A DNA stretch of 41,054 bases from Actinomycetes bacterium (GCA_024225275.1 JAAEMS010000220.1:1-41054), one strand, 5' to 3'; counted from the first letter of the stretch, positions 7,935-26,304 are shown. The notes: generated by a model from the sequence alone, not told the origin. Made by a program: numbers and translations.

Positions 7935-9950
7935 GTGGAAAGCATCATCTCGGCAGCAGTGGTGGTGATCGTCGTACTGCTCGTCGCCCTCCTGGGTATC
8001 GGGCTGATGGTCACCCGCCTCTTCCGCAAGGTCCGCCAGGGTGAGGCCCTGGTCGTGTCGAAGTGGCGTGAGGTGGTCGTGACCTTCACCGGCATGATCG
8101 TCATCCCGGTGATCCACAAGGCCGAGTGGGTGGACATCTCGGTCAAGAACCTCCAGATCGAGCGTCGGGGCAAGGACGGTCTGATCTGTGCCGACAACGT
8201 CCGGGCCGATATCACGGTCGAGTTCTACGTGAAGGTCGACCGCACCGCCGAGGCGGTCATCAAGGTGGCCCAGCAGGTGGGTGCCGACCGGGCGTCTGAC
8301 CCCGAGACCCTGCGCGAGCTCTTCGCCGCCAAGTTCTCCGAGGCCCTCAAGACCGCCGGCAAGCAGTTCGAGTTCGAGTCGCTCTACACCGACCGCCAGC
8401 AGTTCCGCGACGCCATCATCGAGATCATCGGCCAGGACCTCAACGGGTATGTCCTCGAGGATGTCGCCATCGACTATCTCGAGCAGACCCCCATGGACGC
8501 TCTCGATCCCACCAACATTCTCGACGCCGACGGCATCAGGAAGATCACCGAGCGGACTGCCGATCAGCACATCCGCACCAACGACGCCGAGGAACGTGAG
8601 CGGGAGGAGACCTTCCGCCGCACCACCGATGCCGACAAGGCCGTGTTCGAGATGGAACGCGACCGGGCCGAGGCCGAGGCCCGCCAGCAGCAGGAGATCC
8701 GTACCGTCCAGGCTCGCTCCGCGGCCGAGGCCCGAGTGGTCGAGGAGACCTCCCGCGAAGAGGCCGAGTCGGCCCGCATCTCCACCGAGCAGGGGCTGGG
8801 TGTGGCCGACCAGAACAAGGACCGCGAGATCGCCCTGGCCGACGCCAACCGGGAGCGGGTCATCGCCGTACAGACCGAAGAGATCGAGCGCGACCGATTG
8901 CTCGCCGTCGTGGGGCGCGAAACTGCGGTCGCCGAGGCCGGCAAGGAGAAGGAATCGCGGGCCCGTGAGCTGTCCGAGGTGGAGAGGAGCCGGGTCGAGG
9001 CCGACAAGGCCGTGGCTGAACAGGAAGAAGCCATCGCCACCCTGCGGGTTGTCGAGGACGCCCAACGCACCGCCACCGCTGAGGTGAAGATGGCCGAGGG
9101 TTCCGCCCAGGCTGCCTTCGTCTCCCGGGTGCAGGAAGCCGAGGCCGACAAGGCCGCCGCCGGCAGCGAAGCCGAGCGTCGCACCATCCTCGCCCGGGCC
9201 GAGGCCGAGGCATCGGACCAGGAGATGGCTGCCGCCAAGCGCCGGGCCGAAGGGGCCCAGGCCGAAGCAGCGGCGGGTGGCCTCGCTGAAGTCGAGGTCG
9301 AGACCAGTCGGGCTGAAGCCATTCGGCAGGTGGGTACGGCCGAGGTCGACATCGAGCGCCAGCGGGCCGAGGCCATCCGGGACACCGGCGTGGCCGAGGG
9401 TGACGCCACCAAGGCCCGTCTCGCCGGCGAAGGTGAGGGTCTCGAGGCCAAGGCCACCGGTGTGGGGGCTATGACCGAAGCCGGTCGTGGTCACGAGGAG
9501 TTTCGCCTCGGGCTCGACGCCAACAAGGAGATTGCCTTGGCCGGCATCGACGCCAAGGCCGACGTGGCCCGGTCGGCGGCAGCCGCTCTGGGCGAGTCGT
9601 TGTCCAACGCCGACATGCAGATCGTGTCCGACGAGGGCATCGTCGAACGTATCCTGTCGGCGGCCGGGCATGGTCAGGCCATCGACGGGTTCGCTACCAA
9701 CGGCGACACCGCTCGTCAGCTCCTGTCGCCCTACCTCGAAGGCGACGGCAACTTCGTGGCCGACGTGGCTGCCGGTCTCGGCGGCCTGGGTGCTGCCGGT
9801 CTCCGTGACCTCACGATCGCCGACTTCATCGGCCGTCTCGGCCGCCGGGTCGACGACGGGGGAGCGCTCGACCGTCTGCGGGCAGCCATCGACGACGCGG
9901 GTATCGCCGACCTGCCTGTCGGTGACCTGCTCGACGACGGGGCCAAATAG
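7935..9950 (+). CDS. Flotillin-like SPFH/band-7 protein (YqiK/FloT type)
   Basis: GTG start sits 9 nt after AGGAG. N-terminal TM helix, SPFH core (GEALVVSKWREVVVTFTGMIVIPVIHKAEWVDISVKNLQIERRGKDGLICADNVRADITVEFYVKV), then a roughly 300-aa E/A/R-rich coiled-coil flotillin tail. Confidence 0.9.
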   Translation: MESIISAAVVVIVVLLVALLGIGLMVTRLFRKVRQGEALVVSKWREVVVTFTGMIVIPVIHKAEWVDISVKNLQIERRGKDGLICADNVRADITVEFYVKVDRTAEAVIKVAQQVGADRASDPETLRELFAAKFSEALKTAGKQFEFESLYTDRQQFRDAIIEIIGQDLNGYVLEDVAIDYLEQTPMDALDPTNILDADGIRKITERTADQHIRTNDAEEREREETFRRTTDADKAVFEMERDRAEAEARQQQEIRTVQARSAAEARVVEETSREEAESARISTEQGLGVADQNKDREIALADANRERVIAVQTEEIERDRLLAVVGRETAVAEAGKEKESRARELSEVERSRVEADKAVAEQEEAIATLRVVEDAQRTATAEVKMAEGSAQAAFVSRVQEAEADKAAAGSEAERRTILARAEAEASDQEMAAAKRRAEGAQAEAAAGGLAEVEVETSRAEAIRQVGTAEVDIERQRAEAIRDTGVAEGDATKARLAGEGEGLEAKATGVGAMTEAGRGHEEFRLGLDANKEIALAGIDAKADVARSAAAALGESLSNADMQIVSDEGIVERILSAAGHGQAIDGFATNGDTARQLLSPYLEGDGNFVADVAAGLGGLGAAGLRDLTIADFIGRLGRRVDDGGALDRLRAAIDDAGIADLPVGDLLDDGAK

Positions 9951-9952
9951 CG

Positions 9953-12900
9953 GTGACGGACACGTCCCCGCCGCCTGCGGGGAGCCCGCCGTCAGAGCTT
10001 GGCGCCCAGAGCGACGACACCGCTGGGCCCAGCGAGGCGGACGAGCTGAGGGGGGGTTCCTATGAGCTTCTCCGCCGCCGGCTGGCCAGCCAGGCCCGCC
10101 AGTTGGTCAGTGGCGCCGAGGCCGTCGACAGTCGTCGGATCGCCACCTTCTCGTCCAGCCGGCTGAAGCTGGTCGGGTCCGACCGATTGAGCACCGACGT
10201 CATCGGCCAGGCTCGCGACATCGTGCGCATCGGCGACCTGCTCCTTTTCGGCTACAACGTGGGTCTCGACCTGGCCAGCGTCGAACCCGAGCACGTCTTC
10301 GCCCTGTACCGGGCCGGTGGCGCCGGCGGGCGACCCCATCCCGAGCTCGTGCCCGTGGACCCCTCCGATCCCGCCTACTTCCTGGGCGATCCGGTGTTCC
10401 GGGAGGAATTTGCCAAGCTGTACCGGTTCTACGGCAAGGCCCGATTCATCGACCTGAGGGCGTCGACCACCCAGTTGCTGGCCGCCTTCCAGGTGGGGGA
10501 CCGCATCAGCGATGTCGTAGTCCTGCGCTGGGCGGTGGCCGACGACGGTTCGGTTGCGTTCATCGACAGCCGCGGTGACCGCGACTACACCTGGCCGCCG
10601 GCCCATGACTTCATGTGGACCGTGTGTGGCCGTGAGGACCAACGAGCGGGCGCCCACCCCACAGTGGTGGTCGACAACGAGGTATTCGTCGGGTTCCGCA
10701 ACGGCCGGCTCCAGCTCCGCACCGAAGACGGCAGCCCCGGCGGCCGCGTCGTGGTCGACGAGGAGGTGGAGGCACCCGGCCAGTCGTTGGCCGATGTCGA
10801 GGTGGCCTGGTTCGGCCTGGGCGATGTCTTGTTGCTCCGGGTCTCTCTCTACGGCGAGGCCGAACGCTTCTATGTGTTCGGTCGCCGCAGCGGTTCGGGT
10901 ACACGGGTCGATGCCATCGGTGCCGCTTGTCGGATCCTGCCCGGCGAAGACGGCGTGGTCTTCCCCGGTGGGTATCACCTGGCCTCCACCGGTACCCGGG
11001 TCTTCGAGGTCGATGCCCAGGAGATGGTCTTCGAGGAGGCCGTCGTCTCCCCGAACGGTGAGGACGTCCTGTACGTCTTCCACCGGCCCGAGAATGGCGA
11101 CTATCTGCTGTTGCCCTACAACCTCGTGCGCAAAGAGATCACCCAGGTCATCCCCTGTCATGGCTTCGGGGCGTTCGGCGATGGGTCGATGGTGTTGTTC
11201 CGGGGCGGGCCCGACGACAGTGCTGCCGCCCGCGCTCATCCGGTCCAGTGGTGGGAGACACCGTTCACCGATCCTGACATCGAGCAGGTGGTGGGCGACG
11301 ACCGGTGGATCGTCACCGTCGGCAACCCCACCCTCGTTCGAGGTCTTGCCGATGTGTACGACCTCGGTCGGTTGATTGATCAGGCCGAGAGTTCGGAGCG
11401 CACCTGGGAGGCAATCATCGTCGCCGCCCGACGGGCTCTGGACACCCACCTGTGGTTCGGCGACGACGAGGCCGGCGGTCTTCACGACCAGCTTCGGGGC
11501 CTGCTCGGCACCGCGGGCCAGATTGTCGACGAGTACGCCAGGGTCCGCCGTCTGCGGGGTGAGGCGGTCCGCCGGACCGACGAGGCCCGAATGGGAATCC
11601 GCCGCACCATCGACTCCGCCGGCCAGGCCGGCGAACCGGGTGCCGTGGTCAGCGCCCTGGGTGAACTTCAGAGGGCGCGGGGCGAGACCTCGCTGTTGAG
11701 CGACGTGCCCGAGGTCAGCGACGCCGACGTGAGTGCCCTCATCGACGAGCTCGACGGTGCCCTGGCCCAGCTGGCCGACCGGGCTGTGTCGGTCCTGGAC
11801 TCCGATACGGCCTTCGCCCGCTTCACCGATCAACTCGACCTCCTCGTGACCGAGGGCACGGCCGCCCCCACCACAGCAGAGGTCGACTCGGTGGGGGAGC
11901 GGCTCACCACCCTGCGAACTGACTTGGGTGCCGTGGTCGACGCCGTCACATCGCTCGATGCCGGTGACCCCACCGTGCGGACCCGGATCGTGCGTCGGGT
12001 CGCCGACACGACCGCAGCCGCCAACCGAGCCCAAGCCGTATTGGCCGGTCACCGGCGGGGTCTCTCCGAGAGCGAATCGGCCGAGGCCTTCGACGCCGAG
12101 CTGGCCCTGGTCGAGCAGACCCTGGCCGGCGTGGTCGTCTCGCTGGAAACCCCCGAGGACTGCGACGCCGAGCTGGCCCGCCTCCTCGTGAACGTGGAAC
12201 GCATCGAGGCCAGGTACGCCGACGATCCTGAGCGGGTGGCCAGCGTGGCTGAGCAGCGTGAACGGGTCGCCGAGATCATCGGCAACCGACGCACTGAGCT
12301 CGCCGACGCCCGCGCCCGGCGAGCTGCCCGCATCACCGAAGCCGCCAACCGGCTACTGGCCACCATCGGACGACGGGCGGCCGAGGTCGACGACGATGCC
12401 GCGGTGGCTGGGTTCTTCGCCGCCGACCAGATGGTCTCGCGGGTCCGGTCGTTGGCTGATGACCTCGATGAGCTCGGCGAGCGGGGGTTGGCCCAGGAGA
12501 TCCGCACGGAGCTGGCCGCAACCGCCGAGGAGGCTGCCCGCCAGGTTCGGGACCGCAAGGCGCTGACCGCCGATGACGGGTCGATCGACTTCGGGGGATT
12601 CCGGTTCGCGCCGAACCATCAGCCCTTCGACGTGGTGCTCAGCCCGGCCGGTGACGGCCGTATCGGGGCCGCGGTGACCGGTACCGAGTACCGGGCCGAT
12701 GTGACCGAGCGGCTCGGCGAGTTCGCCGATCTGCTCGACCAGAGCGTTCCCTCGGAGACACCCACGATCTACCGGGGTGAGTATCTGGCCTGGGTCGTGT
12801 TGGCCGAGGCCGAGAAGGCCGATGGAGTGGCCGAGCTGATCTCGCGGGCTGCGGCCCCCGATCGGATGGTCGACCATTGCCGGGCCGCGGCCGAGCGTCG

Positions 12901-14872
12901 CCACCTCGACGGCTACCAGCGGGGTGTCCACGACGACGACGCCGCCCGGATCCTGAGCTCGGTGCTGCCTCACAGCGCGGCGGAGCCCCGCCTGCGTCAT
13001 CCGGGTTGGGTACGGGCTCAGGCCCGGATGTGGCTGGCCGAGCTGGGCCCCGACCACGTCGATCAGCTCGCCGCCCGAATCGGTGGAGCCTGCACTGCGA
13101 GGCAGCGGCTCGGGGCCAGCGGCCCTCTCGATGACGTCGTCGCCGCCCTAGAGGCCGATGCCCCCCGTTCGGCCCCCTGGTACCCGGGCGACGGCCACTG
13201 GTCAGCGGTGCTCGGCTATCTCGTCGATCAGTTCGAAGATGGTCCGGTCCCCCTCGTTGCCGCCAGCACTGCTCGCACACTGGTGACCCGGCTCAACGAA
13301 CGTTTGGGCCGGGAGGGAGTGGCCGATCTCGAGGCGTCCATGACCGGTTCCCCCGATCCGCTGGCTGCCGCCCGAGCCTGGGTGGCTGCCTACGTCGAGG
13401 GCGACGGGTCTCCGGAGTCGTTGGCACTGGACATCGACGAGGCCGCCGGTCTGCTGGCGGCGCCCCACGTCGAGACCGTCGACGCCACCCACCCCGGTGG
13501 GATCGCCATCACCGGTCTCGCCGGTGATCACCCCCGGATCGAAGGAGGCCAGCTCCTGGTCCGTCTCGACGAGCTGGCCGAACGAGTCGGCCGCCATCAC
13601 CGCACCATGGAGGACCGTTGGCCCCGCTACGCCGAGGCTCGCCGCCGGGTGATCGCCGAGGTCAGGGCCCAGGTCGATGTCGACGAACACCGGCCCCGGG
13701 TGATGGCGGGTTTCGTTCGCAATCGGCTGATCGACGAGGCCCTCCTGCCCCTGGTCGGGGCCAACCTCGGGCGCCAGCTCGGAACCGTCGACCAGACCGA
13801 GCTGGCCCGGTCGGGCCTGATGGTCATGATCAGCCCTCCCGGCTACGGCAAGACCACCCTCATGTCGTGGGTGGCGGACCGCCTCGGCCTGCTCATGGTC
13901 AAGGTGAACGGCCCGGCTCTGGGACAGGACACCACGAGCCTGGACCCCGCGGCCGCTCCCAACGCCGCGGCTCGGGCCGAAGTCGAGAAGATCAATCTGG
14001 CCTTCCGGTTCGGGCGGAACGTGATGCTCTTCCTCGATGATGTGCAGTACACCGCGCCGGAGCTGCTCTCCCGCTTCATCCCGCTCGCCGACGCCACCCG
14101 CCGCATCGAGGGTGTGATCGATGGCGAGCCCACGACCTTCGACCTCCGGGGCAAGCGGTTCTGCGTGGTCATGGCCGGCAACCCCTACACGACCGGTGGC
14201 CGCTTCGAGCTGCCTGACATGCTCGTGAACCGATCCGACGTCCACAACCTTGGTGACGTCGCCGATTCCCATCGGGTCGCCTTCGAGCTGTCCTATCTCG
14301 AGAACAGTCTGACGGCGTGCCCGACCTTGGCCCCCCATGCGGCCAAGCTGGCCGACGACATCGAGCTGGTGCTGGCGATGGCCGACGGTCGTCGGGCGGT
14401 CGCCAGCGACGGTCTGAACCATCGGTGGGACTCATCAGAGCTTGGCGACGCGGTGCGGACCATCCGCCACCTGCGTCGAGCCCAGGAGGTTCTGCTCCTG
14501 GTGAACGAGTCCTATGTGCGCTCGGCGGCGATGCGCGACGAGGACCGGGTCGTTCCTCCCTTCCTACTTCAGGGGTCGTACCGGAACATGGCCCGGCTGG
14601 CCTCGCGGATCGTGCCGGTGATGACCGACGACGAGCTCGATGTTGCCGTCGACGAGCACTATCGGGCCGAAGCCCAGACCCTCACCGAGAAGGCCGAGGA
14701 GAACCTGTTGGCCCTCGCCGCCAAACGAGATCGGCTGGCAGACGCCGACCAGGTGAGGTGGGACGCCATCACCGAGCGGTGGGCCGGCATGGCCGCCGCG
14801 GCTGATCCGGCGGGCCGGATCGCTGAAGCGATCGATCGCCTGGCCGGCCGGATGGAGTCTGATACCCGGTAG
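9953..14872 (+). CDS. Giant (1639 aa) cytoplasmic protein with one C-terminal MoxR/AAA_5-type AAA+ ATPase module; N-terminal roughly 1290 aa of unknown function
   Basis: GTG start 2 nt after the flotillin stop. Single P-loop ISPPGYGKTT (about aa 1296), Walker B MLFLDDVQY, then IEGVIDGEPTTFDL and FCVVMAGNPYTTGGRFELPDMLVNRSD. These align well to the MoxR pattern [53 protein letters not shown]. No TM segments and no second P-loop. The N-terminal region is beta-rich, followed by a long A/E/R/D-rich helical region. Confidence 0.8.
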   Translation: MTDTSPPPAGSPPSELGAQSDDTAGPSEADELRGGSYELLRRRLASQARQLVSGAEAVDSRRIATFSSSRLKLVGSDRLSTDVIGQARDIVRIGDLLLFGYNVGLDLASVEPEHVFALYRAGGAGGRPHPELVPVDPSDPAYFLGDPVFREEFAKLYRFYGKARFIDLRASTTQLLAAFQVGDRISDVVVLRWAVADDGSVAFIDSRGDRDYTWPPAHDFMWTVCGREDQRAGAHPTVVVDNEVFVGFRNGRLQLRTEDGSPGGRVVVDEEVEAPGQSLADVEVAWFGLGDVLLLRVSLYGEAERFYVFGRRSGSGTRVDAIGAACRILPGEDGVVFPGGYHLASTGTRVFEVDAQEMVFEEAVVSPNGEDVLYVFHRPENGDYLLLPYNLVRKEITQVIPCHGFGAFGDGSMVLFRGGPDDSAAARAHPVQWWETPFTDPDIEQVVGDDRWIVTVGNPTLVRGLADVYDLGRLIDQAESSERTWEAIIVAARRALDTHLWFGDDEAGGLHDQLRGLLGTAGQIVDEYARVRRLRGEAVRRTDEARMGIRRTIDSAGQAGEPGAVVSALGELQRARGETSLLSDVPEVSDADVSALIDELDGALAQLADRAVSVLDSDTAFARFTDQLDLLVTEGTAAPTTAEVDSVGERLTTLRTDLGAVVDAVTSLDAGDPTVRTRIVRRVADTTAAANRAQAVLAGHRRGLSESESAEAFDAELALVEQTLAGVVVSLETPEDCDAELARLLVNVERIEARYADDPERVASVAEQRERVAEIIGNRRTELADARARRAARITEAANRLLATIGRRAAEVDDDAAVAGFFAADQMVSRVRSLADDLDELGERGLAQEIRTELAATAEEAARQVRDRKALTADDGSIDFGGFRFAPNHQPFDVVLSPAGDGRIGAAVTGTEYRADVTERLGEFADLLDQSVPSETPTIYRGEYLAWVVLAEAEKADGVAELISRAAAPDRMVDHCRAAAERRHLDGYQRGVHDDDAARILSSVLPHSAAEPRLRHPGWVRAQARMWLAELGPDHVDQLAARIGGACTARQRLGASGPLDDVVAALEADAPRSAPWYPGDGHWSAVLGYLVDQFEDGPVPLVAASTARTLVTRLNERLGREGVADLEASMTGSPDPLAAARAWVAAYVEGDGSPESLALDIDEAAGLLAAPHVETVDATHPGGIAITGLAGDHPRIEGGQLLVRLDELAERVGRHHRTMEDRWPRYAEARRRVIAEVRAQVDVDEHRPRVMAGFVRNRLIDEALLPLVGANLGRQLGTVDQTELARSGLMVMISPPGYGKTTLMSWVADRLGLLMVKVNGPALGQDTTSLDPAAAPNAAARAEVEKINLAFRFGRNVMLFLDDVQYTAPELLSRFIPLADATRRIEGVIDGEPTTFDLRGKRFCVVMAGNPYTTGGRFELPDMLVNRSDVHNLGDVADSHRVAFELSYLENSLTACPTLAPHAAKLADDIELVLAMADGRRAVASDGLNHRWDSSELGDAVRTIRHLRRAQEVLLLVNESYVRSAAMRDEDRVVPPFLLQGSYRNMARLASRIVPVMTDDELDVAVDEHYRAEAQTLTEKAEENLLALAAKRDRLADADQVRWDAITERWAGMAAAADPAGRIAEAIDRLAGRMESDTR

Positions 14873-18807: not shown

Positions 18808-20292
18808 ATGACCGATCTCGATCTGGACAGCGACGAATCGATCCGCGATCCGGCCGGGTACTTCGGTGCCCGCCGGACTGATGGGCCGGTGCAGTGGAGT
18901 GAGCGCCAGCGGGCCTGGGTCGTGCTCGACCATGCCGAGGTCGGTGACGCTTTCCGGGAGACCGAGACCTTGTCGGCAGACCGCATCACCGCCCTCGAAC
19001 GGGTGGCCCGGGACCGGCCGGCGGCGTTCATGAAGGTCGTCGACCTGTTGAGGGGCTGGATGGTCTTCCGCGACCCGCCGGCTCACACCCGGCTGCGCGA
19101 CCCCATGCGCAATGTGTTCACCCCGAGGCGGGTGGGGGACATGCACGACCTCGTCGCCGAGGTCGTCGACGACGTGGTGGGGGGACTGCCCGCCGACGGC
19201 TTCGAGGTCCGCCGCGATTTCGGCAGTCCCCTGCCCGCTCTGGTCATTGCCGCGATTCTGGGCGTCGAGCGGGAGGACCGGGCGAAGTTCCAGGCCTGGT
19301 CCGATGATCTGGCCACGATCGTGTTCTCGGCCCAACCCTCGGCCACCGAACCCGCTCGGGCCATCAGCGCCACCGAGGAGTTCAGTGCCTTCTTCGGCGA
19401 TCTGATCGACCGCGAGCGAGAGAATCCGGGCGACAGCCTGCTTTCGACCCTGGTAGCCGAGGCCGACGACGAGCTGACGGCCATGGAACTGGTGGGCGCA
19501 TGCACCCTGGTCCTGTTCGGGGGTCACGAGACCACCGCATCACTACTGACCAACACCGTTGGAGTCCTGCTGGAGCGACCTGGCCTGATGGCCTGGTGGC
19601 GGGCCCACCCCGAAGCCGATGCCACGGCCATCGAGGAGTTCCTCCGGGTGGTCGGGCCGGCCCGCACCATGTTCCGCAAGGCCGCGGTTGACCACCAGCG
19701 CGGTGGTGCCAGTGTCAAGGCTGGCCAGACGGTGGCCATCTGCATCGCCGCGGCCAACCACGACGAGTCGATGATCGCTGATCCCGGCCGCATCGACCTG
19801 ACCCGGGACCCCAACCCCCACTACGCCTTCGGTTGGGGGCTCCACCACTGTGTCGGCTCCCACCTGGCCCGGCTCGAGGCCCAGCTGGCCATGCGCGCCC
19901 TGTTCAATCGCTTCGCGGTACTCGAGCCGGTCGGTGTCGTCCCCCCGGTCACCGGGACCGTGCTCGGCTACGCCCGCGAACCGATGGTCGTGGGGGCGGG
20001 ATGGACAGGCGACGCGCAACCACCAGATTGCGCCCATCGGTGGTCCTCAGCGGCTGGCGTCGCTGCGGAACACCCGGGCGAGAACCAGGATCAGGATGGC
20101 GCCGAACACAGAGCCGAAGAAGCCGCTGCCGGCCGGCTCGAATCCGTCCCCGGTGAGCGCGTTGAGAGCGGTGCCACCCACCAGCGAGCCGATCATGCCC
20201 AACCCGATGGTCCCGATACAGCCCAGCCCGCGGTTGCCGGGTACGACCATCCGGGCCAGCACCCCGATAATGAAGCCACCGATCAGCCATGA
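18808..20292 (+). CDS. Cytochrome P450 monooxygenase with an unusually long C-terminal tail
   Basis: I-helix GGHETTAS, ExxR (EEFLR) and heme-thiolate loop FGWGLHHCVGSHLARLE. After the expected P450 end (near 20030) the frame stays open for roughly 85 low-complexity codons that are antisense to the GlsB-like gene. Confidence 0.8.
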   Translation: MTDLDLDSDESIRDPAGYFGARRTDGPVQWSERQRAWVVLDHAEVGDAFRETETLSADRITALERVARDRPAAFMKVVDLLRGWMVFRDPPAHTRLRDPMRNVFTPRRVGDMHDLVAEVVDDVVGGLPADGFEVRRDFGSPLPALVIAAILGVEREDRAKFQAWSDDLATIVFSAQPSATEPARAISATEEFSAFFGDLIDRERENPGDSLLSTLVAEADDELTAMELVGACTLVLFGGHETTASLLTNTVGVLLERPGLMAWWRAHPEADATAIEEFLRVVGPARTMFRKAAVDHQRGGASVKAGQTVAICIAAANHDESMIADPGRIDLTRDPNPHYAFGWGLHHCVGSHLARLEAQLAMRALFNRFAVLEPVGVVPPVTGTVLGYAREPMVVGAGWTGDAQPPDCAHRWSSAAGVAAEHPGENQDQDGAEHRAEEAAAGRLESVPGERVESGATHQRADHAQPDGPDTAQPAVAGYDHPGQHPDNEATDQP

Positions 20293-20325
20293 GATCACGC
20301 CCATGCCCCCATCCTCCCACGCCAC
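20047..20325 (-). CDS. GlsB/YeaQ/YmgE-family small membrane protein (transglycosylase-associated)
   Basis: GVISWLIGGFIIGVLARMVVPG...IGTIGLGMIGSLVGGTAL matches the YeaQ/YmgE two-helix glycine-zipper pattern. An alternative start at the second Met is about 20304. Confidence 0.65.
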   Translation of the reverse strand: MAWEDGGMGVISWLIGGFIIGVLARMVVPGNRGLGCIGTIGLGMIGSLVGGTALNALTGDGFEPAGSGFFGSVFGAILILVLARVFRSDASR

Positions 20326-20406
20326 CCCCCGAAGTTGAGGCCGATTGCCTCACGGGTGACGCGATCCGCCTCACGTTGGGTTGGGTCGGGTGGGGGCGGG
20401 TGAGCG

Positions 20407-21516
20407 GTGTCGGGCAGACTGGGGGCCATGACCAACGCGGCGACCACCAGCTCGGCCCTGGGTCTGGCCGTGGCCGCGGGGGTACCGGTGCTGCTCTGGG
20501 GGGCACCGGGTACCGGCAAGAGCTCGGCGGTGCGAGCCATGGCCGAATCCATCGGCTGGCCGTGCGAGGTGGTCATCGCCTCGATCCGTGAGCCCACCGA
20601 CTTCGCCGGGCTCCCGGTTGTGGTCGACGATGGCATCCGTTTCGCCCCGCCCACCTGGGCCACCAGGCTGGCCGAGTCCGAGCGCGGGCTTCTGTTCCTC
20701 GACGAGATCTCCACCGCGCCACCCGCCGTCCAGGCGGCCCTCCTTCGGGTGGTGCTGGAACGGGTCGTGGGCGATCTGGATCTGCCCGACAGCATCGCCG
20801 TGGTTGCGGCCGCCAACCCGCCTGACCAGGCGGCCGATGGCTGGGACCTGTCAGCCCCCCTGGCCAATCGCTTCTGCCACCTCGACTGGGACGTCGATCC
20901 GGCGGCGGTGGCCGAGGGTCTGGCCGGCGGATTCCCCGAGCCCACCGTTCCCCAGCTGGCCGGTGAATGGGAGAAGCGCATCACCACCGCCCGGGCCCAA
21001 GTGGCTGCGTTCCTGGTGGTGCGGCCCGGGCTGGTGTCCGCACCGCCCACCGAACGGGCCGCTGCGGGCCGAGCCTGGCCCAGTCCCCGATCCTGGGAGA
21101 TGACGGCCCGCCTCCTGGGCGCCGCCCAGGTCGCCGACTCCGACGGCCCGGTTCGTGCCGCCTTGGTCACCGGATGTGTCGGCCAGGGGGCGGGTATCGA
21201 GTTCCTGTCCTGGCTCGACGAGCTCGACCTGCCCGATCCCGAGGCGGTGCTGGCCGACCCGGGCTCGTTCGTCCTGCCCGAGCGGGGTGACCGGGCCTAC
21301 GCGGTGCTCACCTCGGTGGCCGCCGCGGTGGCGGCCGACACCACGCCCGAACGGTGGGCCGCCGGTTGGGTGGTACTGGGCCAGGCCGGCGAAACCGCTC
21401 CCGATGTTGCCGCGGTGGCTGCCCGCATCCTGGCCCGGTGCCGGCCCGAGGGTGCCTCGGCCCCACCCCAGGCCGCGGCCTTCGTACCCCTCCTAGAGCA
21501 GGCCGGACTGCTCTGA
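20407..21516 (+). CDS. MoxR-family AAA+ ATPase (AAA_5)
   Basis: Walker A LLWGAPGTGKSS, PTD motif (REPTDFAGLP), Walker B LLFLDEISTA, QAALLRVVLER, sensor ANP (VVAAANPPD) and LANRF. GTG start at 20407; alternative ATG at 20428. Confidence 0.85.
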   Translation: MSGRLGAMTNAATTSSALGLAVAAGVPVLLWGAPGTGKSSAVRAMAESIGWPCEVVIASIREPTDFAGLPVVVDDGIRFAPPTWATRLAESERGLLFLDEISTAPPAVQAALLRVVLERVVGDLDLPDSIAVVAAANPPDQAADGWDLSAPLANRFCHLDWDVDPAAVAEGLAGGFPEPTVPQLAGEWEKRITTARAQVAAFLVVRPGLVSAPPTERAAAGRAWPSPRSWEMTARLLGAAQVADSDGPVRAALVTGCVGQGAGIEFLSWLDELDLPDPEAVLADPGSFVLPERGDRAYAVLTSVAAAVAADTTPERWAAGWVVLGQAGETAPDVAAVAARILARCRPEGASAPPQAAAFVPLLEQAGLL

Positions 21517-21520
21517 CCGG

Positions 21521-22714
21521 GTGGTTGACCCCGTGACCCACAGCCCGCTCCCGGCCCTCGACGGGGAGAAGGTGGCCGCCGCGAGGCTCCACGCCATCGA
21601 TCGCTTCCCTTACCTGGCGTCAGCCCTGTTCGCCGCCCCGATCCTCGAAGCCGACGAACTGGGTCGCCTCATGGTCGATGAGTGGTGGCGGATCCATGCC
21701 GATCCGGTGACCGTCGACCAGCTGTCGGTCCCGGAGTTGGCCGGTGAGCTGCTACACCTGACCGGCCACCTCCTGCGCGATCACGCGGCCCGGGCTCGAA
21801 CCGTGGGGTTCGACGAGGCCACCGAGCTGCACCACTGGGTCGACGCGGCCGACGCAGAATTGGTCGACGATCTGCCGGCCGATCTGCAGGCTCTGGCGGC
21901 GGTGCACCCCGAGGATCTGGGCTGCGAGGACGGGCGTCTGGCCGAGGAGTACTACCGGCGCGGCCTGCCCCGAGAAGGCATGGAGAACAACTGTGGGAGC
22001 GGAGCCCACGGGCGACACGCCCCCTGGGAGCCCCCGCCCCCGAGCGATGGCGGCGAAGGTTTGGAGCGTGATCAACAGGAGCTGGTCCGCCGCCGGGTCG
22101 CCGAAGACGTACTTCGTCACGCCAACGAGGCCACCAAGGGTTTGCGCCGTTGGGCCCAGGAAGCTGTGGGCAGCCAGGTCGACTGGCGTCGGGAGCTGGC
22201 CTCCGAGCTGAGGCGCAGTATCTCGTGGGTCAGCGGTGCCGTCGACTACAGCTGGGCCCGTCCCAGCCGTCGTGCCGTCGCCCTCGGGCCGGTGGTATTG
22301 CCCTCCTTGCGCCGGCCCGTCCCCGAAGTGGCGGTGGTGGCCGACACCAGCGCATCGGTGTCGGACGAACTGCTGGGTGAGGCAATGGCCGAGGTCGACG
22401 GCCTGCTGAGGGCGGTGGGGGTCCGGGATGTCCGGGTGTTGGCGTGTGACGACGCGGTCCGAGGGGTGAGCCGGGTCCGCCAGGTCGAGGACATCACCCT
22501 GCTGGGCGGGGGTGGCACCGACATGGGAGTGGGCCTCGAAGCCGCCCTCGACCACCGGCCCCGCCCCCAGGTGGTGGTCGTGCTGACCGATGGGTGGTCG
22601 CCGTGGCCGGAAGCGCCCCTGCCCGGCACCCGGGTGGTGGTGGGTCTGTTGGGATCCGATCCTTCGCCTCCTCCCTCATGGTGTCGGACGGTCGCCATCG
22701 GGGATGCCCTGTGA
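21521..22714 (+). CDS. VWA-domain protein, DUF2201-like (N-terminal putative metallopeptidase-like domain plus C-terminal von Willebrand A)
   Basis: MIDAS DxSxS motif in VAVVADTSASVSDEL, then LTDGWSPWP near the end. It begins 5 nt after the MoxR stop. The N-terminal region has HLTGHLLRDH but no clean HExxH. Confidence 0.8.
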   Translation: MVDPVTHSPLPALDGEKVAAARLHAIDRFPYLASALFAAPILEADELGRLMVDEWWRIHADPVTVDQLSVPELAGELLHLTGHLLRDHAARARTVGFDEATELHHWVDAADAELVDDLPADLQALAAVHPEDLGCEDGRLAEEYYRRGLPREGMENNCGSGAHGRHAPWEPPPPSDGGEGLERDQQELVRRRVAEDVLRHANEATKGLRRWAQEAVGSQVDWRRELASELRRSISWVSGAVDYSWARPSRRAVALGPVVLPSLRRPVPEVAVVADTSASVSDELLGEAMAEVDGLLRAVGVRDVRVLACDDAVRGVSRVRQVEDITLLGGGGTDMGVGLEAALDHRPRPQVVVVLTDGWSPWPEAPLPGTRVVVGLLGSDPSPPPSWCRTVAIGDAL

Positions 22715-23535
22715 CGGGGGGCGACGACATCGAGGACCTCGAGCTCACCGTGAGGTGCGGGGGTGGGTTGCATGTCGTGCGGTGGAGCCGGGGCCGACTC
22801 GTGCTCGACCATCACCCCGACATCGATGCCGAACGGGCCCTGGTGGCCTTTGGTGGCGAGGCCCCTCCGTGTGTCGCCCACTATGAGCTGTGGTGCGAGG
22901 CGGTGGCCGACGGAGGGTTCCTGGGTGAGTGGGCCCACCGGCACGAGATCGGCCGCGACCGGCTGTGGTGGTTGAAGGTCGCCATCGAGCGGATGCGGTC
23001 CGAGGGGGTGCAGGAGTTCCTGCGAGACATGTCACGCCCCACCGCGGCCCGTATGGGCCAGTTCGTAACCGGGTTCCCCCAGTCCTTTGTCGACCAGGCT
23101 GGGGCCGAGGTGGCCCGGCGCCTGCTGGCGGGCGAGAATGTCGCCTACCCGCGGGCCGATCTCCTGATCGAGCAAGCCGTAGCCCTCCGGGTGCGCGAGG
23201 CCTTCGCCCGCAGCATCGGGGGCACCCTGCTCTCCTTGGGGGCCGCTGCCCTGGTGCCCTTCCGGCCGATGATCGCCGACGACGTCGAGGCGGGGATCTC
23301 CGGGGTTCTGGACGGCCGCAACAGTTGGGTCGAGGTCACCGTTTCGCCGGCTTGGTTGGCCCAGGTGTGGGCCCGGGGGTTGGGGGTGGTCGAGGGCCAT
23401 CTCCTGGTCGCGGTCGATGACGAATCCCATCGGGCCCTGGTGGTGACCTGGAAGGGCGAGGCCAATGGGCACCACGTACCCGTCGTCGACTGGTCGGATC
23501 TGGTGCACCGGCCCGATGGCTGGGCCTTGGCCTGA
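22711..23535 (+). CDS. Hypothetical soluble protein (about 275 aa) translationally coupled to the VWA gene
   Basis: GTG at 22711 overlaps the VWA stop (GTGA). Codon usage is consistent with the neighbouring genes. I recognise no motif. The track ORF start at 22594 is a 5' extension into the VWA gene. Confidence 0.55.
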   Translation: MTGGDDIEDLELTVRCGGGLHVVRWSRGRLVLDHHPDIDAERALVAFGGEAPPCVAHYELWCEAVADGGFLGEWAHRHEIGRDRLWWLKVAIERMRSEGVQEFLRDMSRPTAARMGQFVTGFPQSFVDQAGAEVARRLLAGENVAYPRADLLIEQAVALRVREAFARSIGGTLLSLGAAALVPFRPMIADDVEAGISGVLDGRNSWVEVTVSPAWLAQVWARGLGVVEGHLLVAVDDESHRALVVTWKGEANGHHVPVVDWSDLVHRPDGWALA

Positions 23536-23572
23536 GCGTCATACCCGGGCCGACTGTGCCGATCCCAGAGGC

Positions 23573-24436
23573 ATGATCGCCATGAACAAGGGTGGCCCTC
23601 GGCGGGGCCTGACCCCGGCGCGCACCTTCATCTACGCGGTCGTCGCATTGATCTCGGTGGCTGCGGTCGTGAGCATCAACCGGCTCGACACCACCGGCAA
23701 GGCGGCGGGCATCGTTCTCGACGTGGAGGCGGCCCGGCAGACCACCCGAAGCCCCTTCGTCGACCAGTGGGAATACACCTACGAGGTGCGGATCTCGCCG
23801 GCCTTGGGTGGCTACACGCGCGACCTGCACACCACCGACGAGTTCGACATAGGTGACCAGATCGAGGTTCTGGTGGTCGCTCGCGAGGGTGGCTTGGCCT
23901 TCGAGCCGGTCGGCACTGTCCGGAACCTGTGGTGGCTGACGATCGCCGTGGGGGGCCTTGCCGTGGCATCCCTATTGGGTAGTGGGGCCGTTCTCCGGAG
24001 CAGGGGCGGCGGCCAGAACCTGGTGATGGGGGCCGGACTCGTGGCGGGAGCCATTGCCGTTCTCGTTGCCCTCTGGATGGGTGTACCCCGGCTGGCCGAA
24101 GCCACCGCGTCCACGGCTCCGGCCGATGTCGGCAGGGTGCACATGTTCGGCGCGTCGGGTGGGGTCGACATCGAGGTGATCACTGGGTCGGGCCGAGCGG
24201 TCGAAACGAATGTCGCGGCCCGGTGGTGGCTGTCCCACGGCGAACCCGGCGTCATCGAGGTCGTCGAGACCGACCGCGGCCTTCTCGTGCGGGGTGACGA
24301 CCGCTTCGGTCCCGGGGGTCTGGCCATTGTCGGGCTGTGGGCCTTCAGCCTGGTCGCTGGTGGGGTCATCTGGTCAGCCAAGCGGGACCGCCGCCGATCG
24401 GCGCCGACTCCACCGACCGAGCTATCGGCGCACTAG
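23573..24436 (+). CDS. Multi-pass membrane protein (four predicted TM helices with two soluble beta-rich inserts)
   Basis: ATG at 23573 (MIAMNKGG). Hydrophobic segments FIYAVVALISVAAVV, LWWLTIAVGGLAVASLL, LVMGAGLVAGAIAVLVALWMGV and LAIVGLWAFSLVAGGVIW are separated by roughly 80-90-aa hydrophilic segments, giving a tandem TM-barrel-TM arrangement reminiscent of DUF3592-type proteins. Confidence 0.55.
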   Translation: MIAMNKGGPRRGLTPARTFIYAVVALISVAAVVSINRLDTTGKAAGIVLDVEAARQTTRSPFVDQWEYTYEVRISPALGGYTRDLHTTDEFDIGDQIEVLVVAREGGLAFEPVGTVRNLWWLTIAVGGLAVASLLGSGAVLRSRGGGQNLVMGAGLVAGAIAVLVALWMGVPRLAEATASTAPADVGRVHMFGASGGVDIEVITGSGRAVETNVAARWWLSHGEPGVIEVVETDRGLLVRGDDRFGPGGLAIVGLWAFSLVAGGVIWSAKRDRRRSAPTPPTELSAH

Positions 24437-24445
24437 AAACGGGGG

Positions 24446-25084
24446 ATGGCGAACCTCCCCGACGGACTGGCCGAACGTGAAGACAGATCCGTGGGGTGCT
24501 GGTGGCACGGCACCAACGAGCTCTACGTCGAATACCACGACGGCGAATGGGGTCGACCGGTCGGCGATGATGTCCGCCTGTTCGAGAAGGTGTGCCTCGA
24601 GGGGTTCCAGTCGGGGCTGTCGTGGCTGACCATCCTGCGCAAACGGGAGAACTTCCGCGCCGCGTTCGACGGCTTCGACTTCGAGAAGGTGGCGGGCTAC
24701 ACCACCAATGACGTCGAGCGGCTGCTCGGCGACGCCGGGATCATCCGTCACCGGGGCAAGATCGAGGCCACCATCAATAATGCCCAGCGGGCCATCGAGC
24801 TGATCGACGACGTCGGGTCGCTGGCCGCCTTCTTCTGGCGCTACGAGCCCGGCCCCGACGCCCGCCCGAAGGTGGTGAACCATGCCGCGCTGATGGAGCT
24901 GGCCATCACCCCCGAGTCGACGGCGCTCTCGAAGGACCTGAAGAAGCGGGGCTGGAAGTTCGTGGGCCCCACCACGATGTACGCACTCATGCAGGCCATG
25001 GGCATCGTGAATGACCACCTGGAGGGTTGCTCGACCCGCGACGAGGTGGAATCAGAGCGCGACACGTTCACCCGGCCGGGCTGA
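24446..25084 (+). CDS. tag: DNA-3-methyladenine glycosylase I
   Basis: Canonical Tag blocks: CWWHGTNELYVEYHDGEWGRP, LFEKVCLEGFQSGLSWLTILRKRENFRAAFDGFD and the zinc-site residues. Confidence 0.9.
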   Translation: MANLPDGLAEREDRSVGCWWHGTNELYVEYHDGEWGRPVGDDVRLFEKVCLEGFQSGLSWLTILRKRENFRAAFDGFDFEKVAGYTTNDVERLLGDAGIIRHRGKIEATINNAQRAIELIDDVGSLAAFFWRYEPGPDARPKVVNHAALMELAITPESTALSKDLKKRGWKFVGPTTMYALMQAMGIVNDHLEGCSTRDEVESERDTFTRPG

Positions 25085-25089
25085 GACCC

Positions 25090-26304
25090 TCAGGCCTGAC
25101 GGCCGGCGGCGGGGTCGCCCCGTGAACCCACCAGAAAGAGAACGGCGGCGCCCGCCACCAGTACGCCGCTGACCCTCATCGCCACGCCGATCGAGGTGGC
25201 CTCGCTGAGCAGGCCCAACAGGGGAGGGGCGGCCACGAAGCCGAAGTCTCCGGCCGATCGGTAGAGGGCCACGGCCATGCCGCGCCGATTGGGGGGCGCG
25301 ATGTCGGCCACGTAGGCGGCGGGAGCCGGCCCGGCCGTTCCCGTACCGAGGCTCATCACCACGTTCCCGACCACGAAAGCGGTCACGGTCGAGCTGCCAC
25401 CGATGACAAGAGTGCCGGCCCCGGCAGCAATTCCCGAGAACAGGATCACCCAGGCCCGTCCAACACGGTCGGCCGCCCCCGCGGCCGGGATCAGGGTGAA
25501 CAGGGTGAGCATGCCGGTGGCCGTGAACAGCAGGCCGAGCTCGCCTGCCCCCCACCCGAACACGTCGTTGGCGTAGAGGGGCACGAGCGTTCCCCGGGTA
25601 CCGGCCCGGCTCATGAAGATGGTGGCCGTGACCACCGCAATGAGCAGGAACTGCTTGCTGGAGAGCAGCGCCCATGTGGTGATCTCGGCCGGCGGAGGGC
25701 TGCCATCGGTGGGCTCGGGCGGTTGCTCGGGGCGGGTCTCGGGCAGCCGCACTGCCGCGTAGATGGCTGTGAGCAGGGCGGTGCCTCCGACCACGAAGAA
25801 GGGCATGTCCAGGCCGTAGCGTTCGGCGATCAGGCCCCCAACCCCGGGACCGACAGCCACCCCGAAGCTGAGGGCCCACTGGTTGGTCGCAACGTATCGG
25901 GCCCGCTTGTCGGGAGGGGCGATGTCGATCAGGTAGATCATCGCCGCGCTCATGTAGAAGCCCGAACCGGCACCGGCCACGAAGCGCCAGACGAGCAGGG
26001 TCCAGATGTCGTTGGCCAGACCCGAGCCGATCATTCCCACCGAGGTGATCAGCGGCCCGCCGACCAGGAGCAGGCGGCGTCCGTGCCGATCGGCCACCAG
26101 TCCCGCCGGGATGTTGAGGATCAGCCGGGCCAGGGCGAACACGGTGAGGGTGAGCCCCACCATGGTGGCTTCCACTCCGAATTCCTGGGCGTAGAGAGGC
26201 AGGACGGGAGCGACCACGCCTTGTCCCACCATCACCAGGAACGTGGCTCCCGACAGGACCAGCAGATGTTCGGCCTGGCGGAGTCGTTGGATCAGGCCGG
26301 GCAC
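25090..26304 (-). CDS. MFS transporter
   Basis: A 12-TM-type hydrophobic profile and the MFS loop motif GLVADRHGRR between TM2 and TM3. Confidence 0.85.
   Translation of the reverse strand: MPGLIQRLRQAEHLLVLSGATFLVMVGQGVVAPVLPLYAQEFGVEATMVGLTLTVFALARLILNIPAGLVADRHGRRLLLVGGPLITSVGMIGSGLANDIWTLLVWRFVAGAGSGFYMSAAMIYLIDIAPPDKRARYVATNQWALSFGVAVGPGVGGLIAERYGLDMPFFVVGGTALLTAIYAAVRLPETRPEQPPEPTDGSPPPAEITTWALLSSKQFLLIAVVTATIFMSRAGTRGTLVPLYANDVFGWGAGELGLLFTATGMLTLFTLIPAAGAADRVGRAWVILFSGIAAGAGTLVIGGSSTVTAFVVGNVVMSLGTGTAGPAPAAYVADIAPPNRRGMAVALYRSAGDFGFVAAPPLLGLLSEATSIGVAMRVSGVLVAGAAVLFLVGSRGDPAAGRQA

Follow-up and report, generated by a model that had tools for sequence, protein, structure and literature searches.

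Gene organisation of the locus

We analysed a 41,054-nucleotide stretch of DNA from an Actinomycetes bacterium (GCA_024225275.1 JAAEMS010000220.1:1-41054; G+C approximately 69%), referred to here as the window, in which genes for a MoxR-type ATPase, a DUF2201-type VWA protein and a soluble protein of an unannotated family (g3) follow one another on the same strand, with a gene for a membrane protein (g4) behind them. All four open reading frames (ORFs) had been placed correctly in an initial annotation of this DNA, and their reading frames are backed by codon-position GC (GC3 0.80–0.89):

20428..21516, plus strand: gene 1, MoxR-type AAA+ ATPase (AAA_5), 362 aa; alternative GTG start at 20407
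21521..22714, plus strand: gene 2, DUF2201_N (zincin-like) plus DUF2201 (VWA-like) by Pfam, 397 aa
22711..23535, plus strand: gene 3 (g3), 274-aa soluble protein of an unannotated family, GTG start
23573..24436, plus strand: gene 4 (g4), membrane protein with four hydrophobic segments, 287 aa (284 aa from the ATG at 23582)

The MoxR stop codon (TGA, 21514-21516) and the GTG of gene 2 at 21521 are separated by 4 nucleotides (nt), so that the close spacing reported initially holds, the figure of 5 nt being one too many. The reported GTGA overlap at 22711-22714, which joins the gene 2 stop to the GTG start of gene 3, is real; homologue N-termini bear out a start at 22711, which gives a product of 274 aa, one residue shorter than first stated. 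Close spacing and start/stop overlaps are ordinary in high-GC operons, and the significant feature of this locus is its conserved synteny rather than either of these. We found no terminator-like site on the plus strand in 20000-25400, no sigma-70-like promoter around the cluster and no Rfam family in the window.

g3 belongs to an unannotated family with a near-invariant N-terminal module

A word-indexed search returned 20 homologues of g3 at 41–99% identity, and a profile search of a library of representatives at 50% identity yielded 889 proteins at E ≤ 1e-3, of which 464 also reached E ≤ 1e-10; most are 250–330 aa long. A distant member used as query (P0072) gave 6 matches on short contigs, three of them with usable gene context. 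Named members are without exception "hypothetical protein" entries from Acidimicrobiales or from Actinomycetota metagenome-assembled genomes (MAGs), and the loci related to the window come from Acidimicrobiia and Acidimicrobiales MAGs. No model in Pfam, NCBIfam, PADLOC or PHROG matched g3 or any of 41 family members; for g3 itself Pfam gave nothing at E ≤ 1, and a Pfam scan of 31 members gave no recurrent match. The profile searches that the initial annotation had recommended for the products of genes 3 and 4 likewise gave no family match for either; for g3, searches by sequence and by fold found no solved structural relative, the fold matches lying below any significance threshold. A lack of conservation, it had been suggested, would point to a GC-frame artefact; g3 is conserved, its frame is backed by codon-position GC, and it is a real gene of a sizeable unannotated family.

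The family has two conserved stretches, located in g3 as follows:

22756..22872, plus strand: conserved N-terminal module, residues 16-54, C16-x4-H21-x13-H35-x5-E41-x6-G48-x5-C54
23353..23370, plus strand: C-terminal-domain motif WLAQVW, W215 to W220, identified by family conservation

Conservation was counted over approximately 170 representatives with at most 50% mutual identity, aligned to the family profile. Within the module, H21 (157/157), H35 (159/159), G48 (161/161) and C54 (161/161) are invariant, E41 is present in 158/159 and C16 is kept in 94% (148/157). In the C-terminal domain W215 is invariant (170/170), with V219 in 162/169 and W220 in 156/169. Conservation is highest in the N-terminal module (2.37 bits per column), with the block 211-230 next; it is lowest in the helical middle (1.30 bits per column), which also varies in length. 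The statement that g3 has no recognisable motif is thus overturned by a sharply defined, almost invariant C-H-H-E-C module.

An AlphaFold2 model of g3 built from 19 sequences is confident (pLDDT 90.8, pTM 0.87). A three-stranded sheet and a helix make up the predicted N-terminal part (residues 10-46); residues 53-180, the middle, are predicted to be helical, and residues 184-273 to form a C-terminal domain rich in beta structure. The model places C16 and H21 on either side of the first hairpin turn, H35 behind strand 3 and E41 within helix 1, and its helix 2 starts with C54. The C-H-H-E-C pattern would fit either a metal site or a Cys/His catalytic centre.

g3 adjoins the MoxR–DUF2201 pair across distant loci

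Linkage was surveyed by tblastn and profile searches on 37 fetched loci, together with a metagenome scan for related loci (at least 10 loci). A DUF2201-type VWA protein was defined by the Pfam models PF13203 and PF09967, both above the gathering score. The window, L001 (L002 is the same locus), L008 and L011-L021 each have MoxR, DUF2201 and g3 in uninterrupted succession on a single strand; in these contiguous triads identity to the window is 67–78% for MoxR (13 or more loci), 51–62% for DUF2201 and 40–54% for g3. The linkage is kept in very distant g3 members (L023, equal to L024; L026, equal to L027; and L028), and it persists where the genes have been rearranged: in L036 g3 is divergent from MoxR–DUF2201, and in L037 the order is g3, MoxR, an unidentified ORF and DUF2201. 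On a 2955-bp soil contig (L025:2-2829), three g3 paralogues stand in tandem behind the 3' end of a DUF2201 gene, which is a local amplification of the partner gene. Altogether, a g3-family gene adjoins MoxR–DUF2201 in 20 of the 27 distinct loci, in three gene orders. This conservation of g3 beside the pair despite changes in order bears out the proposal in the initial annotation that MoxR, the DUF2201-type VWA protein and the unknown protein are functionally linked.

In the other seven distinct loci, g3 has no MoxR or DUF2201 gene within 5–8 kb. Whether g3 homologues always follow a DUF2201/VWA gene, as was asked initially, can therefore be answered in part: linkage is seen in 20 loci, but the order varies and seven loci are unlinked. 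Six of the unlinked loci (L003/4, L005/6, L009/10/33, L030, L034 and L035) group in a single clade that is nested within the linked lineages; L022 is the remaining one. This makes linkage the ancestral state and its loss a derived one.

The unlinked clade is one argument for regarding g3 as an independent gene, for example one for a small nucleic-acid-binding or DNA-damage protein, that is a chance neighbour of MoxR–VWA and has its real links to nearby repair genes. In this clade g3 lacks MoxR–VWA and is always convergent with a UDG gene, and Tag, NUDIX, UvrD_C, PDDEXK_1 and a WYL/PafC-like regulator stand beside g3 in separate contexts. We nevertheless consider independence very unlikely. Adjacency to MoxR–DUF2201 is kept at approximately 25% sequence identity and through rearranged orders, a pattern for which neither chance nor hitch-hiking accounts; the repair genes come from several families, mostly point towards g3 on the opposite strand and are missing from many loci; and the fold matches of g3 are below significance.

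The genes around the triad are not the same in all loci (PhyH, ECH, SDR, an ABC transporter, a methyltransferase, a Ser/Thr kinase, a WYL regulator and others), the gene after g3 is mostly on the opposite strand (convergent), and neither a consistent fourth gene nor a DNA-repair theme was found across the loci. Since the flanks differ and the following gene is mostly convergent, the comparison indicates that the conserved unit is MoxR, DUF2201 and g3, i.e., three genes and not four.

The ATPase and VWA proteins of the pair

Gene 1 matches AAA_5 over the whole profile (Pfam; E 2.6e-10, 40.9 bits against a cut-off of 22, positions 1-139 of 139), with weaker matches to bpMoxR (31.7 bits, cut-off 27), AAA_3 and Sigma54_activat. 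Its closest solved sequences are the AAA modules of Midasin/Rea1 (E 8e-9), and it has a full-length relative in the phage ATPase family phrog_1297 (E 1.5e-52). By profile, then, gene 1 is assigned to the MoxR-class AAA+ ATPases (AAA_5). The VWA partner gene adjoins it, and the MoxR–VWA pairing is kept in all triads. The ATPase motifs, labelled by eye and judged by eye to be spaced as expected, are:

20500-20523, plus strand: Walker A, GAPGTGKS
20689-20712, plus strand: Walker B, LLFLDEIS
20806-20820, plus strand: sensor-1, AAANP
20863-20874, plus strand: Arg-finger region, ANRF

Gene 2 matches both DUF2201_N (Pfam; E 3.9e-21, 76.3 bits, cut-off 23.2) and DUF2201 (E 1.3e-21, 77.4 bits, cut-off 26.4). 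Profile matches thus place it in the DUF2201 family; the feature that fails is HExxH. The relevant elements, including those of the metal-ion-dependent adhesion site (MIDAS), are:

21755-21784, plus strand: degenerate zincin motif HLTGHLLRDH, Leu in place of the catalytic Glu
22343-22357, plus strand: MIDAS element DTSAS, intact
22505-22522, plus strand: MIDAS element GGGGTD, intact
22583-22609, plus strand: MIDAS element LTDGWSPWP, intact

The family motif HExxHxxRxH reads HLTGHLLRDH in gene 2, with the His residues kept, and the other family-wide motifs are intact (DxExxDD, CGSG, RPSRR, DTSxS, GGGGT and TDGxxPWP). The MIDAS elements DTSAS, GGGGTD and LTDG are kept in 16/16 aligned full-length DUF2201 homologues, and all 16 full-length DUF2201 proteins from triads have H[L/H]xxH at the zincin motif. 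The integrity of HExxH, which the initial annotation had proposed to check in an alignment, proved informative: the window lacks the catalytic Glu, as do, when partial sequences are included, 19 of the 20 assessable g3-linked loci, the exception being L037 (HEIMH). Among DUF2201 loci fetched from a plasmid collection (actinobacterial replicons), HExxH is kept in 7/8, namely those of Streptomyces and Embleya (L038, L042, L043 and L045), Rhodococcus (L039), Mycobacterium (L040) and Xylanimonas (L041). The eighth, from Nonomuraea gerenzanensis (L044; NZ_LT559118.1 4045103-4056191), is a DUF2201 homologue with HHVGH, lacking the catalytic Glu and the CGSG loop; no match to the g3 family or the module was found within 5 kb of it. 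In the subfamily of gene 2, metal binding by the zincin-like domain may survive, and peptidase catalysis is predicted to be lost.

The VWA domain (DUF2201) of gene 2 reaches residue 393 of 397, leaving no C-terminal extension or effector domain. Pfam gave no propeller or WD40 match, and no solved relative was found by sequence. The phage family phrog_1314 matches gene 2 over its full length (E 1.5e-28); this family is labelled "HNH endonuclease" in PHROGs, which looks like a mislabel for a zincin–VWA protein.

The N-terminal module recurs in a second protein type

The DUF2201 pairs of actinobacterial plasmids and of phages (NCBI "VWA-like domain-containing protein" plus an AAA/MoxR ATPase) agree with the window in their two Pfam domains and in the ATPase partner. 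The plasmid relatives are 37–43% identical to gene 2, and the pairs share with it HxxxHxxRxH, DxExxDD, CGSG, RPSRR, DTSxS, GGGGT and TDGxTPWP. The canonical plasmid pairs differ from the window in mostly keeping HExxH, as described above, and in their neighbour genes.

Directly upstream of MoxR–DUF2201 in 4/4 fetched Streptomycetaceae loci lies a gene for a "hypothetical protein" of approximately 460–500 aa, which has no Pfam match. At residues approximately 300–415 this protein carries the C...H...H...E...LGG...C module (E 7e-10 to 4e-7); no other part of g3 was matched, so that these loci differ from the window in having the N-terminal module only. The genes, which there accompany a pair with intact HExxH, are:

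L038:2059-3426, upstream module protein
L042:1838-3352, upstream module protein
L043:2163-3560, upstream module protein
L045:2219-3631, upstream module protein

The module is thus the common denominator of two different protein types tied to MoxR–DUF2201. That it is the only element common to g3 and the Streptomycetaceae protein is our main reason for proposing it as a recognition handle.

A further arrangement was seen on Rhodococcus, Mycobacterium and Xylanimonas plasmids (L039:6206-8959, L040:6206-8950 and L041:6386-9029), where an AAA–DUF2201 pair with intact HExxH is followed by a conserved gene set. This set encodes a protein of approximately 60–66 aa, one of approximately 390–406 aa (no Pfam match in L039 and L040, where it was tested) and one annotated as an AAA-family ATPase of approximately 430–440 aa (AAA_30 helicase-like by Pfam in L039), and is a different, also uncharacterised, extended module.

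Local neighbours of the triad

Downstream of g3 in the window, g4 starts at the ATG at 23573, or at 23582 as in its homologues, 37–46 nt past gene 3 and with no overlap; the next gene starts 9 nt past the g4 stop:

24446..25084, plus strand: Tag, DNA-3-methyladenine glycosylase I (Pfam Adenine_glyco, E 1.6e-71)

The four hydrophobic segments of g4 (residues 13-40, 119-142, 147-175 and 247-269) give the topology transmembrane (TM), approximately 80-aa soluble, TM, TM, approximately 75-aa soluble, TM. The repeated TM–soluble–TM arrangement described initially is therefore sound as topology, but it is not a sequence repeat: BLASTP detected no mutual similarity between the two halves, and the repeat is one of topology only. 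Searches of g4 against Pfam, NCBIfam, PADLOC and PHROGs gave no family match, and its AlphaFold2 model was unusable (pLDDT 36.9).

The initial annotation had regarded the locus as a four-gene cluster, with g3 and the membrane protein of repeated topology jointly forming the cargo or effector of MoxR–VWA. The position of g4 on the same strand a few tens of nucleotides past g3 with no terminator-like site between them, its genuine four-segment topology and the preservation of the order g3, g4, Tag in the 71%-identical relative L007 would all be in keeping with this. Beyond the close relatives of the window the association disappears. Only four homologues of g4 were found, all at least 65% identical (65–99%), L007 is the one other place where g4 follows g3, and the other 19 triads are without a g4 homologue, the gene behind g3 in them being usually convergent and unrelated. 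The lack of a start/stop overlap between g3 and g4, and the placement of Tag 9 nt past g4, fit a locally assembled transcription unit. We judge the four-gene system very unlikely, and neither the cluster of four nor the membrane protein as cargo or effector survives the comparison. g4 is a neighbour that is probably co-transcribed and is specific to the close relatives of the window, and Tag probably closes the local transcription unit; both lie outside the conserved system, as local passengers.

Repair-type genes beside g3-family genes include Tag (co-directional), UDG (convergent, in the whole solo clade), NUDIX, UvrD_C, PDDEXK_1 and a WYL/PafC-like regulator, at 24446-25084 of the window and at L007:1706-2344, L003:8788-9465, L005:8847-9530, L009:8839-9504, L008:8884-9366, L023:5154-5654, L001:3935-4912 and L014:7643-8707. 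They may be there by chance, other loci having unrelated neighbours. Elsewhere in the window, also on the plus strand, an SPFH/Band7 protein of 671 aa (7935-9950) is followed after 2 nt by an ORF for a 1639-aa protein (9953-14872) that has an AAA domain at its C-terminus besides DUF3686 ("ATPase involved in DNA repair") and DUF7902; together the two proteins form a flotillin-like plus giant-ATPase pair.

Comparison with known MoxR–VWA systems

In coupling a MoxR-class ATPase gene to a VWA/MIDAS gene and a third partner gene, the triad resembles CbbQ/CbbO–Rubisco, NorQ/NorD–NO reductase, CoxD/CoxE–CO dehydrogenase, RavA/ViaA and BchI/BchD–BchH, and as in the characterised MoxR–VWA chaperone pairs the ATPase and MIDAS motifs are intact. 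The characterised pairs (CbbQ/O, NorQ/D, CoxD/E and BchI/D) each serve one dedicated client, often a metal centre. Unlike in these pairs, the VWA protein of the window is a DUF2201-type protein whose zincin-like domain, at the N-terminus, has lost the catalytic Glu; the third protein falls into neither a described family nor a solved fold, and no client enzyme complex is encoded near the triad.

Rea1/Midasin, the best solved-sequence match of the window ATPase, also combines AAA_5 modules with a MIDAS domain, although in the window AAA and MIDAS are found on separate small proteins. The Rea1 MIDAS domain grips a conserved Glu of its substrates and pulls on small substrate domains, and g3 has the almost invariant Glu E41 in its conserved module. 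Fold searches do not make the g3 module ubiquitin-like, and a Glu–MIDAS contact is suggested here by analogy.

MoxR–vWA ternary conflict systems (VMAP, iSTAND, FtsH and beta-propeller) combine MoxR and vWA with a specific third protein (Kaur, Burroughs, Iyer, Aravind 2020, PMC7159879). In the VMAP systems the third protein is tripartite and includes VMAP-C, and the vWA protein has variable C-terminal effector domains; in the bpMoxR system a beta-propeller is fused to the vWA component (PMC7159879). The window shares with these systems the three-gene core of MoxR, vWA and third protein and the presence in Actinomycetota, and its ATPase scores just above the bpMoxR cut-off. In contrast to them, its 274-aa third protein has no VMAP, iSTAND, FtsH or propeller domain, no effector-associated, peptidase or nucleotide-signalling domains are present, and the context is housekeeping. 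Neither its third component nor the architecture of its vWA protein matches theirs, and by the definitions of PMC7159879 the triad is not a VMAP, iSTAND, FtsH or beta-propeller ternary system.

A conflict or defence role of a broader kind deserves separate consideration. Here g3 would be a sensor or effector, e.g., a latent thiol hydrolase (C54 with H21 and H35) that the ATPase–VWA pair restrains and then frees on infection or stress; the order of invariant His, His and then a Cys at a helix N-terminus presumably recalls permuted papain-like enzymes. The three-component MoxR–vWA plan itself resembles the systems of Kaur et al. 2020, and the build of g3, in which a conserved N-terminal module and C-terminal domain enclose an all-helical middle that diverges fast, is a loose parallel to the VMAP layout. 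The three tandem g3 paralogues in L025 would also suit such a role, as would the full-length phage relatives of the ATPase and DUF2201 (phrog_1297 and phrog_1314) and their relatives on actinobacterial plasmids. The searches for defence-related features point the other way. PADLOC-DB v2 gave only generic P-loop matches to the four proteins (best RtcR/PspF, E 2.5e-7 over approximately 35 residues) and none to genes 3 and 4; no Pfam model, VMAP or other, matched g3 in a Pfam copy that contains bpMoxR and was not checked for VMAP-C; and the VWA protein ends without a C-terminal effector domain. Moreover, MoxR is highly conserved (67–78%) rather than diversifying, the neighbours are metabolic or housekeeping genes with no mobile-element genes among those scanned, and no g3 relatives were found in viral contigs (two pattern scans) or plasmids (tblastn). 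A defence role is not supported, and we judge it unlikely; nor is the VMAP-like reading offered in the initial annotation supported, given the small size of g3, the missing effector domain and the metabolic flanks.

Searches for functional literature on DUF2201, its accession numbers and the MoxR subfamily APE2220 found none in the library searched; the DUF2201 type is essentially without literature. The MoxR–VWA pair type, AAA_5 and DUF2201 are known; what would be new here is the undescribed g3 family as specific candidate partner of an orphan MoxR–VWA class.

A proposed dedicated three-component remodelling system

Adjacency to MoxR–DUF2201 through sequence distance and rearrangement, an invariant module and the reuse of that module beside the pair indicate that g3 is genomically locked to MoxR–DUF2201. 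Our favoured reading, which we hold with a little better than even confidence, is that the three genes make up a MoxR–VWA remodelling system of their own, dedicated to g3 as its client or partner. With the same modest lean, and by analogy with characterised machines, we propose that the MoxR ring and the VWA adaptor bind g3 by its N-terminal module and remodel it with ATP. In the proposed mechanism, g3 would be the specific client or partner on which the ring and adaptor act, and would be recognised by its C-H-H-E-C module. The zincin-derived domain, now non-catalytic, would serve for binding, and the MIDAS site would engage an acidic residue of the partner. ATP hydrolysis would then remodel g3, with metal loaded or unloaded at a His/His/Glu/Cys centre, or with a switch between latent and active states.

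Several points weigh against this interpretation. One marine clade and L022 carry g3 without MoxR–VWA within 5–8 kb, so that g3 can exist unlinked or be served in trans. HExxH is kept in L037 despite a g3 neighbour, and in L044 the Glu is lost without a detectable g3; the correlation between Glu loss and g3 seen in the alignments is thus strong, with exceptions. Our case is purely comparative, and contact between g3 and MoxR–VWA is something that we infer from it. g3 could be a client, a regulator or an adaptor, and C16, H21, H35, E41 and C54 fit a metal site and a Cys/His catalytic centre alike as candidate readings.

A bolder extension of the favoured reading is that the C-H-H-E-C module is an undescribed domain marking the clients or effectors of DUF2201-type MoxR–VWA machines, and that g3 is a new fold with an invariant His/His/Glu/Cys centre, either a catalytic thiol-imidazole site or a regulated metal site, switched on or off by the ATPase and held by the dead zincin as a substrate clamp. 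We offer this as speculation that is rather unlikely; if true, uncultured Actinomycetota would widely possess an AAA+-gated switch of a new kind.

MoxR–VWA pairs abound in bacteria, and only a minority have a known client; here comparative evidence names a specific candidate partner. The triad is an experimentally tractable three-protein system, in which g3 is compact and soluble and has a confident predicted structure and a five-residue signature. In the g3-linked DUF2201 subfamily, a "putative metallopeptidase" domain is suggested to have become non-catalytic. Finally, the portable module of approximately 40–50 residues could become a family model that annotates approximately 900 clusters of "hypothetical proteins", mostly from MAGs of Acidimicrobiia and other Actinomycetota.

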